64,000 nucleotides of DNA, taken from assembly GCA_012520515.1 (NCBI GenBank), contig JAAYOD010000027.1, positions 920 to 64,919 on the forward strand, in the 5' to 3' direction. The translations under genes and the position numbers were made by a program. This document shows, in pieces, positions 4,334 to 6,502 of this stretch. Origin of the DNA: Clostridiales bacterium. GTDB taxonomy: Bacteria > Bacillota > Clostridia > Christensenellales > DTU072. The stretch's first letter is position 1; the number at the start of each line of letters is the position of its first letter. The notes under the pieces are model-generated. The model did not search any database. It saw only the letters and a program-made list of their open reading frames with translations, and was not told where the DNA came from.

Positions 4334-6502
4334 ATGGCCGGTAAGCAAATTTATGAAGAGATAATATATCAGATAAACACGCTCTTAAGACAGGGCGAAT
4401 TATATCCAAAATATGTAGATAGTATTTTGGAAGGTGAAAACGATTATAAAATCTCTCAAGTTTATACAAAAAAGAACTATAAAACTGACTGGATTGATAC
4501 AATAGAAGACTGTATTGTATCGCTAGACAACATAGTGCGTAACCCCAGAAAGTTTATAGCTATTGAAGAAGATATCGTTGATATTAGCTTAGCAAAAAGT
4601 ATTTCAGTTGAGAGCGTAAAGCATTTATCACAGCATACCAACCTTATTTCCAGTGTTGATAAACACGGCAATGTTATTCCCTCAAAAATTCTTAACACCA
4701 GTAAAGAAGAGAGTTTTGACATTTATGAAAACCGTTTTATCTACACCCTTTTGTTAAAAATTCGTGACTTTATCGATAGGCGTTTTACCGTTATGAAAAA
4801 CGCGCTAATGCAAAGCGGCGACTTAGGCGTTACCATAGAAAGCGACTTTGCCATCGATAAAAATAAAGTTCAGTATAAGCTAGAATCACAAGCTAGCTTC
4901 CCTTTTGATGCTGTTGTAAAGAGAAGCAACACAGCTCAGCCTACCGATGTTGAGCGTGTGTCGCACATTAGCAGCATTATTAATGACTTCTTATCAAGCC
5001 CTTTTGCTAAAGAAATGCGTAGTTGCGCACTAGTGCGCCCGCCTATTTTGCGTACCAATGTTATTTTGAAAAACCCTGACTTTAAAAAAGCATTGGTGCT
5101 TTGGCAGTTCGTTGAATCCAATGAGAACTTAGAATTTAATGTAGAAACTGTTACAGAAACAGCTCCACTGCCTGATAAACTTAGCGAAAAGTATCGTAGT
5201 TTGATATACCTAAACACCATACTATTGCAAAGTATAGCAAACTCCCGCGAAGAAGGCGAAGCGCTTGACTTAAAGGGCGATGAAAAGAAAGAAGAAGAGC
5301 TGATAGCAGATATTTATGTCACAAAGAACATTGATGACTTTGTGCCCGACGATTTTCCGCTTTTACGCTTGGAAATCAGCGAAATACGCAATATCTATCA
5401 AAAGGTGGCTACCGATAAATCTATAACGCCTGTTCAAATGAGTAAGATGAACGCAGCTATTGATAGAGTTTTGCGCCAATATAGAATAAATAAAGCAAAA
5501 GATGACTCTGAAAAGCAAAAACGCCTAATTGCAGAGCAGCTAGAAGAAGAAGAGCTTGCAAAAAAGCTTGCGCTTAGAGAACAAAAAGACCTAGAGCGCA
5601 AAAAGCGCCAAGAAGAAGCGCGCAGGCGTGTAGAAGCAAAGCGCTTAGAACAAGAGCGTATTGAAGAATTAAAACGCTTAGTTATAGAGCGCAAAGAGAT
5701 GGAGCGCAAGCAAAAAGAAGAGCAAGAGCGCCTAGAGCAAGAGCGCATACGCTTAGAGAAAGAGCAAGCTGAAGAAAGAGCGCGTCAAGAAAAAATTCAA
5801 GCGGAAATTCAAGCAAAGACAGAACACTTTAGAGCGTTAAAAGAAATTGCTATAGAGCGCTTTGAAAAGGCAAAGGCAGAGTTTGACGCTGCAGTTATTG
5901 CATTTAAAGAAGAAGAAAAAGCGCAAGAAGAATCTCGCCGCCAGCATGAGCTTAAGATGGCTGATATGATAAGCGAAGGCATTGCTATCAAGGAAGAAGG
6001 CGAAATGCTAAAACGCCTAGCGCAAGAAAATGAAGAAAGCGCAAGGCGGACAGCGCTAGAAAAAGAAGAAACTCTAGCTAGAATGAAGCAAGAATCTGAC
6101 GATTACTGGAAGAGCGAAAGAGAACTTGCTATTAAGCTTGGCGTAGAAGAAAAACTAGGAGTGCTAAATATTCACGAACGCGCAGAACTTGAGAAGATAC
6201 TTGCTGCAGAACAGCAAAATATGGAAATCCTAAATAAGATGCACGAAGCATTTGAAGCTGGACTTTCTGCAGAAAACATAGAGCATATTGAGCGCTTGGT
6301 ATCTATAGCTCGCCGTTTCCGCACTGAAGAAGAGATAGAAAAGATTCTTAAAGATTATGAAAGGGAAAGAAAGAGAAAGAGAAAGCGCATTTTGCTTGGC
6401 AAGTTAAATATACTAAAGCCTACTGCTTCTAAAAAGAAGAAGAGTAAAAAGAAAAACTTGAAAGGCTTTGCAAAGAAAATGAATAAATCTAAAAGGAAAT
6501 AG
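4334..6502 (+). CDS. McrC-N-terminal (DUF2357)-like protein fused to a long E/R/K-rich coiled-coil or single alpha helix; no nuclease motif recognised
   Basis: 722 aa, with an AAGGA SD 6 nt before the ATG. The N-terminal ~330 aa include NPRKFIAIEEDIV...SFDIYENRFIYTLLLKIRDFIDRR, resembling the conserved D.yENRF block of DUF2357/McrC-NTD. From nt ~5500 to ~6400 the sequence is E/R/K-rich (KKRQEEARRRVEAKRLEQERIEELKRLVIERKEMERKQKEEQERLEQERIRLEKEQAEERARQEK...). The C-tail is Lys-rich (KKKKSKKKNLKGFAKKMNKSKRK). I could not find a PD-(D/E)xK motif. Confidence 0.55.
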   Translation: MAGKQIYEEIIYQINTLLRQGELYPKYVDSILEGENDYKISQVYTKKNYKTDWIDTIEDCIVSLDNIVRNPRKFIAIEEDIVDISLAKSISVESVKHLSQHTNLISSVDKHGNVIPSKILNTSKEESFDIYENRFIYTLLLKIRDFIDRRFTVMKNALMQSGDLGVTIESDFAIDKNKVQYKLESQASFPFDAVVKRSNTAQPTDVERVSHISSIINDFLSSPFAKEMRSCALVRPPILRTNVILKNPDFKKALVLWQFVESNENLEFNVETVTETAPLPDKLSEKYRSLIYLNTILLQSIANSREEGEALDLKGDEKKEEELIADIYVTKNIDDFVPDDFPLLRLEISEIRNIYQKVATDKSITPVQMSKMNAAIDRVLRQYRINKAKDDSEKQKRLIAEQLEEEELAKKLALREQKDLERKKRQEEARRRVEAKRLEQERIEELKRLVIERKEMERKQKEEQERLEQERIRLEKEQAEERARQEKIQAEIQAKTEHFRALKEIAIERFEKAKAEFDAAVIAFKEEEKAQEESRRQHELKMADMISEGIAIKEEGEMLKRLAQENEESARRTALEKEETLARMKQESDDYWKSERELAIKLGVEEKLGVLNIHERAELEKILAAEQQNMEILNKMHEAFEAGLSAENIEHIERLVSIARRFRTEEEIEKILKDYERERKRKRKRILLGKLNILKPTASKKKKSKKKNLKGFAKKMNKSKRK

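Follow-up and report, generated by a model that had tools for sequence, protein, structure and literature searches.

A nuclease-less McrC-like protein with a long charged helix, encoded beside an McrB-type NTPase and a SipW-type signal peptidase in a Clostridiales bacterium

McrBC is the textbook DNA-restriction motor. Its McrC subunit consists of a helical bundle, a beta-sheet stalk and a loop-helix-loop that plugs the McrB pore; the GTPase-activating residues are Lys157 in the Escherichia coli protein (EcMcrC) and Arg263 in TgMcrC, and the ring has a "top" face that carries both the N-terminal domains of McrB and the C-terminal domain of McrC (PMC7680126). In E. coli, a McrC dimer bridges two McrB hexamers (PMC6624300). 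Two related types of system are described by Bell et al. (2024, PMC11090510). In CoCoNuT defence systems, the PD-(D/E)xK nuclease is often missing from the McrC homologue or inactivated in it, and wherever a system has no McrC nuclease, it is invariably accompanied by HEPN or other nucleases and by RNA-binding domains. CoCoPALM, a large clade of NxD-type McrB GTPases placed beside the CoCoNuTs in the NxD clade, was named in one paragraph (section 7) that deferred its analysis; FtsB homology was reported for its GTPase N-terminal domain, and its helical regions were described as coiled coils. A literature search found no follow-up to this paragraph and no paper on the defence-system candidate PDC-M26, and the text supplements of Bell et al. 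do not mention CoCoPALM. Here we describe a gene pair of McrBC descent in a stretch of 64,000 nucleotides (nt) from a Clostridiales bacterium (GenBank assembly GCA_012520515.1, contig JAAYOD010000027.1, positions 920 to 64,919 of the forward strand), hereafter the window, to which all coordinates refer unless another locus is named. In this pair the DNA-binding domain and the nuclease have both been lost; the McrC-like partner, encoded at 4334..6502, is our main subject.

Judged from its many homologues, the McrC-like open reading frame (ORF) is not a chance feature. It starts with an ATG, 5' of which lies an AAGGA Shine-Dalgarno-like sequence, and its 722 amino acids (aa) divide as follows, where AF2 denotes AlphaFold2 models and ER/K a richness in Glu, Arg and Lys.

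4334..6502, + strand: gene of the nuclease-less McrC-like protein, 722 aa (ORF list, Pfam DUF2357, homologues)
4334..5173, + strand: McrC-type scaffold and finger domain, aa 1-~280 (AF2, invariant residues, Foldseek match 6hz4_M)
4553..4714, + strand: predicted beta-hairpin stalk, aa 74-83/118-127, with loop-helix-loop tip, aa 84-117 (AF2)
4712..4783, + strand: SFDIYENRFIYTLLLKIRDFIDRR block, aa 127-150 (composition reading, alignments)
5174..5428, + strand: predicted helical hairpin and acidic YVTKNIDDFVPDDFP loop, aa 281-365, in the position of the McrC nuclease (AF2)
5429..6139, + strand: predicted single long ER/K-type helix, aa 366-602 (AF2, composition, charge pairs)
6146..6409, + strand: three shorter predicted C-terminal helices, aa 605-692, not SAH-like, that is, unlike single alpha helices (AF2)
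6410..6499, + strand: disordered Lys/Arg-rich tail (composition, AF2); the gene abuts the sipW start

The N-terminal part is of McrC type. Residues 58-156 match the Pfam family DUF2357 (PF09823; E = 8.8e-8, 32.1 bits against a gathering score of 23.3), aligning to positions 90-189 of its 251-position profile, and the SFDIYENRFIYTLLLKIRDFIDRR block, which contains the YENRF motif, falls within this match. The initial annotation, made from the letters of this DNA without database searches, had assigned a D-x-Y-E-N-R-F block to a DUF2357/McrC-type domain; the assignment holds for this protein, above the Pfam cut-off, and for 49 of 71 diverse homologues, in which the best E-value is 7.7e-14. It had given the domain about 330 aa, whereas the conserved N-terminal unit runs to ~aa 420, with conservation strongest in aa 1-~280. 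Family-wide, an alignment of 83 sequences leaves W53, L98, I105, P116, Y131, E132, N133, P237, N242 and K246 invariant, to which the alignment of the 71 diverse homologues (A3) adds F135 and T241. Column analysis further shows that the position of R134 is basic in 100% of homologues and that of R150 in 99%. By analogy, R134 is a candidate equivalent of the GTPase-activating Lys157 of EcMcrC and Arg263 of TgMcrC.

Structure prediction adds detail to this assignment. The N-domain was modelled with AF2 over aa 1-420 from the 83-sequence alignment (predicted local distance difference test score, pLDDT, 85.6; predicted template modelling score, pTM, 0.63). The full-length model, a monomer built from a shallow alignment of 12 sequences, was poor (pLDDT 66.5); its Foldseek matches were meaningless, and the N-domain model was used for structure comparison instead. 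The N-domain model begins with a small helix/strand unit, after which two strands (aa 74-83 and 118-127) form a long beta-hairpin with a loop-helix-loop (aa 84-117) at its tip; hairpin and tip were predicted with low confidence without a deep alignment and with high confidence when given one. The YENRF helix (aa 131-160) comes after the hairpin and leads to a second hairpin and a helical bundle; the last strand is a short one at aa 271-278, beyond which the model contains helices only. Over aa 1-~280, pLDDT is mostly above 85. The published description of the TgMcrC finger domain (PMC7680126) fits this predicted layout of stalk and tip, and the only coherent match to a PDB fold, a weak one to which we return below, is to E. 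coli McrC (chain 6hz4_M; Foldseek probability 0.96).

Where the nuclease of McrC would be expected, the N-domain model has helices and no alpha-beta-beta-beta-alpha-beta core. The position is occupied by a helical hairpin (AF2 helices at aa 281-306 and 315-335), by the acidic YVTKNIDDFVPDDFP loop and by the long helix, with aa 336-365 predicted at low confidence. No PD-(D/E)xK or HNH family of Pfam matches the McrC-like protein at E<=1, and the homologue alignment contains no conserved D...(D/E)xK pattern, E261 (83%) being the sole mainly acidic column past aa 157. Nuclease families of Pfam are likewise absent from 70 of the 71 diverse homologues, in which the remaining matches, apart from DUF2357 and the exception mentioned below, are to coiled-coil families; Pfam and NCBIfam scans of the six operon proteins recovered no nuclease in any of them. 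The view of the initial annotation that the nuclease had been replaced is thus borne out by aligned homologues. A cryptic D...(D/E)xK motif drawn from the acidic residues of the finger (D65, E79, D80, E125, E126 and E132) was also considered and dropped, because no Lys stands two residues after any of them.

Two side observations concern this region. The exception among the 71 homologues carries an AAA_15 domain (E = 2.5e-21) and an OLD-like TOPRIM domain (E = 1.1e-8) and is possibly a nuclease-bearing variant. As a candidate short linear interaction motif we note the acidic loop YVTKNIDDFVPDDFP (5309..5359, aa 326-342), which is near-invariant in close homologues but has low AF2 confidence and is not kept family-wide. 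The whole of aa 281-365 is conserved in closer relatives only, being recognised in 13 of 148 cluster representatives.

Beyond this region, the full-length AF2 model shows an uninterrupted helix from aa 366 to 602, about 237 aa or ~35 nm if fully helical. The initial annotation had put the charged helix at some 400 aa; in addition to the shorter overall length, its strongly ER/K-rich part covers only ~85 aa (aa ~395-485), the combined fraction of E, R and K being 0.60-0.65 in aa 401-480 and ~0.42 in aa 481-600. The features of this segment favour an ER/K-type single alpha helix (SAH) rather than a classical coiled coil; the initial annotation had named both as typical of such a pattern. Pairs of opposite charge at i to i+3 and i to i+4 exceed those of composition-matched shuffles in aa 395-485 (z = 3.7), in aa 486-602 (z = 3.6) and over the entire helix, aa 366-602 (z = 5.8), an enrichment that is the signature of ER/K SAHs. 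A hydrophobic periodicity of 3.5 residues does not rise above shuffles in any helix segment tested, and hydrophobic residues make up 11-29% of aa 395-600. The C-terminal helices (aa 605-692) have an SAH score of z = 0.3.

ER/K single alpha helices are known from the lever extensions of myosin VI and myosin X and from caldesmon. They have in common with the McrC-like helix a very high E/R/K content, i to i+4 charge pairs, no heptad and a long isolated helix in prediction; the McrC-like helix differs from them in being bacterial, in being fused to an AAA+-ring plug domain and in its ~237 residues, which would be long for an SAH. In a profile search of the PDB, myosin VI, drebrin and the like were matched via composition only.

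The strongest competitor is a helix that forms a dimeric or higher-order coiled coil bridging two rings, an arrangement that could coexist with the function proposed below. It has a precedent in the E. coli McrC dimer that bridges two hexamers (PMC6624300), and Bell et al. call such regions coiled coils; some homologues match Pfam families such as the crescentin rod and TMF, and the occupancy of a/d positions by hydrophobic residues reaches 0.5-0.62 at aa 487-556 and 599-668. The charge-pair enrichment, the missing 3.5-residue periodicity and the scarcity of hydrophobic residues all point the other way, as does the single straight helix given by AF2, though there a monomer was modelled. We therefore regard a bridging coiled coil as a tentative possibility.

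Across the family, it is the composition of the helix that is conserved. A 60-aa window with at least 50% E/R/K is present in 93 of 116 diverse full-length homologues. Helix length and sequence differ among homologues, the sequence is kept only in close relatives, and aa 575-722 are recognised in only 2 of the 148 representatives. A composition that is conserved while sequence and length are free is what a spacer or stalk would be expected to show. In the 12 close homologues of the shallow alignment (A1), W592, just before the C-terminal helices, is invariant. The protein ends in a basic tail, with a net charge of +19 over the last 42 residues, and such a tail is found in 110 of 115 close, Christensenellales-like homologues.

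Six closely packed genes run on one strand here, with gaps of 15, -8, 42, 46 and 0 nt between them, and the McrC-like gene comes fifth. The operon partners of the McrC-like gene are the following.

51..974, + strand: ORF1, a bitopic membrane protein of 307 aa with a K-rich N-terminus, one transmembrane (TM) helix and an external domain (homologues, TM prediction)
990..2676, + strand: ORF2 and ORF3, paralogous secreted proteins of 280 and 283 aa (paralogy, alignment A4)
2719..4287, + strand: McrB-type AAA+ NTPase, 522 aa (PDB, NCBIfam and Pfam matches)
6503..7240, + strand: SipW-type (archaeal/ER-type) signal peptidase I (TIGR02228, SipW model, TM prediction)

The McrB-like protein aligns ungapped to E. 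coli McrB (6hz4_A, E = 7e-7) and matches the McrB model of NCBIfam (3e-6) as well as Pfam AAA_5. Its Walker A motif GISGTGKTS and the GT[AI]NNDDSTFA motif are invariant in 71 McrB-like homologues, in which the Walker B motif [VI]LDEMN, or a close variant, is conserved, and the partner thus appears to be catalytically intact. In the place of the DNA-binding domain of McrB, a strongly predicted TM helix occupies aa 65-89, with a heptad-like helix of ~30 aa (at ~aa 102-131) behind it. Since K/R residues lie on the C-terminal side of the TM helix, the AAA+ domain is predicted to be cytoplasmic.

The downstream neighbour, with no gap to the McrC-like gene, belongs to the SipW class of signal peptidases (TIGR02228, 55.8 bits against a cut-off of 51.85; SipW model, E = 9e-19); it spans the membrane with two predicted TM helices, and its C-tail is charged and cytoplasmic. 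ORF2 and ORF3 are paralogues (E = 1e-26), and their family shares an N-terminal LSTAT[FY]AW[FY]S motif and a C-terminal WxDG motif (alignment A4). The former resembles the SipW-cognate class of signal peptides by eye only; ORF2 and ORF3 are putative SipW substrates or fibre subunits. The initial annotation had seen neither the McrB-like, SipW and secreted neighbours, nor the domain boundaries, nor the CoCoPALM name that already exists for such systems.

This neighbourhood is not peculiar to the window. At least 581 genome stretches encode a relative of the McrC-like protein, the best 80 being almost all labelled Clostridia; these best 80, from GTDB species genomes, together with four loci found via identical proteins, gave 84 related loci for comparison. 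Homologues of the McrC-like protein are present in all 84, of SipW in 78, of the McrB-like protein in 76, of ORF1 in 49 and of an EAL-domain protein in 36. Wherever a flank exists (76 of the 84 loci), the McrB-like gene lies directly upstream of the McrC-like gene; ORF1-type homologues sit at the same relative position in their 49 loci, and SipW often occurs as two paralogues per locus. The usual order is secreted proteins, SipW, ORF1-type protein, more secreted proteins, McrB-like protein, McrC-like protein and SipW. The EAL-domain gene, encoding a cyclic di-GMP (c-di-GMP) phosphodiesterase, heads the operon in its 36 loci (for example L001, 993..3116, and L003, 2278..3849); the left end of the window falls short of this position and probably also cuts off a first SipW paralogue and another secreted protein. 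The linkage has in one case become a fusion: P0251, of 1016 aa, combines in one polypeptide a DUF2357 N-domain, an ER/K coil, a TM helix, an S26/SipW-like peptidase and a charged (acidic) tail. Its topology is consistent with a stalk that ends at the cytoplasmic side of the SipW membrane anchor.

The family is large. A search with the N-terminal 400 aa against 90%-identity clusters gave 2327 homologues (E<=1e-3), of which the top 120 share 61-87% identity with the McrC-like N-domain; where a source is named for these 120, the label is nearly always Clostridia, Christensenellales or a related group of Bacillota. When 50%-identity representatives were searched exhaustively with HMMER, 1380 homologue clusters came up (400-1380 aa long), including 456 at E<=1e-30. 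The family is abundant in Christensenellales and Oscillospiraceae of the gut, the rumen and anaerobic digesters, mostly uncultured organisms whose surface structures are essentially unknown.

The organism of the window is itself present in anaerobic-digester and biogas metagenomes, and its operon is represented in metatranscriptomes. Contigs span ORF1 to the McrC-like gene, including the junction of the mcrB-like and mcrC-like genes, and metatranscript depth falls in the convergent gap past sipW, which is consistent with operon transcription. A scan for promoter and terminator consensus sequences gave the same counts as shuffles and was uninformative. One metatranscriptome contig (run X1) has a 1-nt insertion after 6523, just inside the start region of sipW, which stems from strain variation or else from faulty assembly. 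At 3170..3444, in the surroundings of Walker A in the McrB-like gene, contigs from other organisms join with loose ends, a reflection of the conserved sequence of related strains or species in the same samples.

In the reading towards which we lean, the pair does not cut DNA in defence but forms a mechanical or regulatory module driven by nucleotides, and this module would couple NTP hydrolysis to the SipW-dependent processing of secreted proteins and their assembly into a surface fibre or matrix. The suggestion of the initial annotation that a restriction-type motor had been turned into something structural or mechanical is supported in this respect and fits the operon context. In the mechanism we infer, the N-terminal TM helices of the McrB-like protein would hold its ring at the cytoplasmic side of the membrane, and the McrC-like finger would enter the pore of the McrB-like hexamer and stimulate nucleotide hydrolysis, probably via R134 and possibly via R150. 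The ~237-aa ER/K helix, the small helical end-piece and the polybasic tail take the place of the PD-(D/E)xK nuclease. Because the McrB N-termini and the McrC C-terminal domain share one face of the ring in McrBC, such a stalk would, by analogy, point to the membrane, where the basic tail may contact anionic lipid or SipW. Hydrolysis in the cytoplasm would in this way be coupled to the SipW-dependent processing and assembly of the co-encoded secreted proteins.

A bolder version of this proposal, which we consider doubtful, would make the ring and the ER/K stalk a rotary or push-pull machine, echoing the stepping of F/V-ATPase type proposed for McrBC. It would pass a force or gating signal through the membrane to SipW and so power or license both the processing and the polymerisation of proteins with AW[FY]-type signal peptides, including subunits of thousands of residues.

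If the proposed function is true, a defence motor has been exapted for building a cell-surface structure, and the pair would supply a missing energy or control component to SipW fibres, which are currently thought to self-assemble extracellularly. If the rotary or push-pull version is true as well, Gram-positive anaerobes possess a previously unrecognised, energy-dependent apparatus for fibre assembly that evolved from a restriction enzyme.

Several points weigh against a motor of McrBC descent that serves SipW fibres. Known SipW-dependent fibres of TasA and BsaA polymerise outside the cell without an NTPase (PMC11580942), so that the need for a cytoplasmic motor is unexplained, and no CoCoPALM system has been studied experimentally. 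The profile of the secreted proteins (28 members) has no match to TasA and no other significant match in the PDB, and the SipW-cognate signal peptide model TIGR04088 remains below threshold (15.1 bits against 19), with hits to 2 of the 28 members. Of 148 cluster representatives only one has the SipW fusion, which might be an artefact of assembly or a frameshift. The Foldseek match to 6hz4_M is weak (E = 0.07, TM-score 0.22-0.26); sequence and profile searches of the PDB with the N-domain returned nothing or low-complexity matches to charged helices, and an hhalign comparison of the family profile with E. coli McrC detected no similarity. Because these sequence and profile comparisons were empty, the link to the solved McrC consists of the Pfam DUF2357 match and the weak fold match. 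The scores for SAH and heptad character are home-made rather than taken from a validated predictor. Finally, the poly-Lys tail, which the initial annotation had singled out as a possible membrane or nucleic acid anchor, stands up in the close homologues but not in the wider family, where only 52 of 116 diverse homologues have a basic tail and 19 have an acidic one.

Another explanation is an anti-phage or anti-plasmid module, in which the McrB-like ring would sense the invader and the stalk would relay the signal to a membrane effector, leading to abortive infection, with SipW and the secreted proteins as effectors or bystanders. Although the pair descends from McrBC and the McrB-like protein matches the PADLOC candidate PDC-M26A (E = 1.5e-37), the McrC-like protein matches no PADLOC model, and the McrB-like protein has a TM anchor only, without a DNA- or RNA-binding domain. 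One of the 71 homologues has the AAA_15 and OLD-type TOPRIM domains described above; neither the other 70 nor the operon contains a nuclease or a recognisable toxic effector. The position of CoCoPALM beside CoCoNuT in the NxD clade (Bell et al. 2024) would suit a defence function, but the remaining genes of the window are housekeeping genes, with no defence-island context, and gene order is kept over at least 581 related stretches, with 60-70% identity in close relatives, unlike patchy defence islands. The EAL c-di-GMP phosphodiesterase linked in 36 loci is, moreover, typical of the regulation of biofilms and surface structures. We judge a defence function to be improbable.

A scaffold for the envelope or for cell division, unrelated to secretion and with the stalk as a cytoskeletal spacer, is very unlikely. 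The FtsB homology that Bell et al. report for the N-terminal domain of the CoCoPALM GTPase would point to it, as would the TM helix and short heptad-like helix of the McrB-like protein. In ten McrB-like N-terminal domains, however, no significant Pfam match to FtsB/DivIC or FtsL was found, a weak FtsL match in one of the ten (E = 0.04) being the nearest. Division genes are not linked to the locus in the window or in the related loci; the tight, near-universal linkage is to SipW and secreted proteins, to the point of one SipW fusion. Lastly, a functionless, decaying McrC remnant with low-complexity drift in its charged region, as the lost nuclease and the poorly kept C-terminal sequence outside close relatives might suggest, is effectively refuted by an N-domain that keeps 60-87% identity in over 100 close homologues and a set of invariant residues in 83 diverse sequences, by an intact frame of 722 codons, by invariant catalytic motifs in the partner, by ER/K character kept in 93 of 116 diverse homologues and by the presence of the gene in metatranscriptomes.

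Large ORFs lie near many of these loci. In the window, an ORF of 12,034 aa (7462..43566, - strand) is convergent to the operon; it has a lipoprotein-type signal peptide (…LMASLVAC|SERP), and its 3' end is covered by metatranscriptome contigs. A tblastn search with this ORF found no similarity in the 84 related loci, while the positive control worked, which rules it out as a conserved operon partner, so the loci do not share a giant protein of common descent. Large secreted ORFs unrelated to it are nevertheless common downstream in other lineages. Neighbours of CoCoPALM loci include an ORF of 8389 aa in L003/L004 (1..1921, - strand) and, in the downstream regions of L026-L034 and L062-L084, ORFs of 1200 to more than 2600 aa, mostly running off the locus; in the Oscillospiraceae and Acutalibacteraceae versions, downstream ORFs of this size are on the same strand. 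Several of the large ORFs begin with signal peptides of AW[FY] type (L062, ...TTISFAWYQN; L074, ...VGVSIAWFSSQ). These ORFs suggest giant secreted substrates for CoCoPALM loci. The window also contains a lipoprotein-like ORF of 1116 aa (44678..48028, - strand), whose C-terminal region holds …CDGLAKAMSLLCWIEDIPCYKVSGYV…GHAWNKVYVDGKWYMVDTTWG, which may be a transglutaminase-like Cys-His-Asp core.

Comparison with described systems places the locus. Canonical McrC resembles the McrC-like protein in the DUF2357-type finger, which is predicted in the latter, in a gene directly downstream of that for an McrB-type AAA+ protein, and in a basic residue (here R134) in the post-stalk helix. It has a PD-(D/E)xK nuclease where the McrC-like protein has the ~237-aa helix and the basic tail, and canonical McrB has a DNA-binding domain where the McrB-like partner has a membrane anchor. 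As the nuclease domain and motif are absent, the McrC-like protein is not a canonical McrC. CoCoNuT systems (CnuB/CnuC) share McrBC descent and coiled-coil fusions; the operon of the window differs in its membrane anchors, SipW peptidases and secreted proteins and in having neither a HEPN or other nuclease nor an RNA-binding domain, and because there is no tandem nuclease, the locus is not a CoCoNuT.

The SipW-TasA/TapA system of Bacillus subtilis and the SipW-BsaA/B/C system of Clostridium perfringens resemble the locus in combining SipW with several secreted paralogues that have an N-terminal motif of SipW-cognate style. The operons for TasA and BsaA contain no NTPase, whereas the operon of the window adds the McrBC-derived pair and related loci have two SipW paralogues; the secreted proteins of the window have no TasA sequence homology detectable by PDB profile search.

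The closest relative is CoCoPALM. Shared with it are the N-terminal TM and coiled-coil-type anchor on an McrB-type GTPase, the long helical McrC homologue, the signal-peptidase-family genes in the operon and the Bacillota lineage. The association with signal peptidases is found directly, sipW lying immediately downstream and SipW homologues occurring in 78 of 84 loci, and helical regions are found on both partners, on the McrB-like side as the ~30-aa heptad-like helix only. The NNDD of the McrB-like protein can be read as NxD followed by D, yet aligns ungapped to the NTAD (NxxD) of E. coli. Nothing contradicts membership, the NxD and FtsB features being compatible with it, and the architecture matches the published description: the locus is a member of this already named type. 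What our analysis adds to the CoCoPALM paragraph is the family-wide absence of the nuclease, the SAH-like character of the helix, the SipW fusion and the two SipW paralogues, together with the ORF1-type membrane protein, the EAL linkage, the very large secreted proteins and the evidence of transcription. The category itself is thus not new; the anatomy, and the predictions drawn from it for an abundant and barely described system, are.

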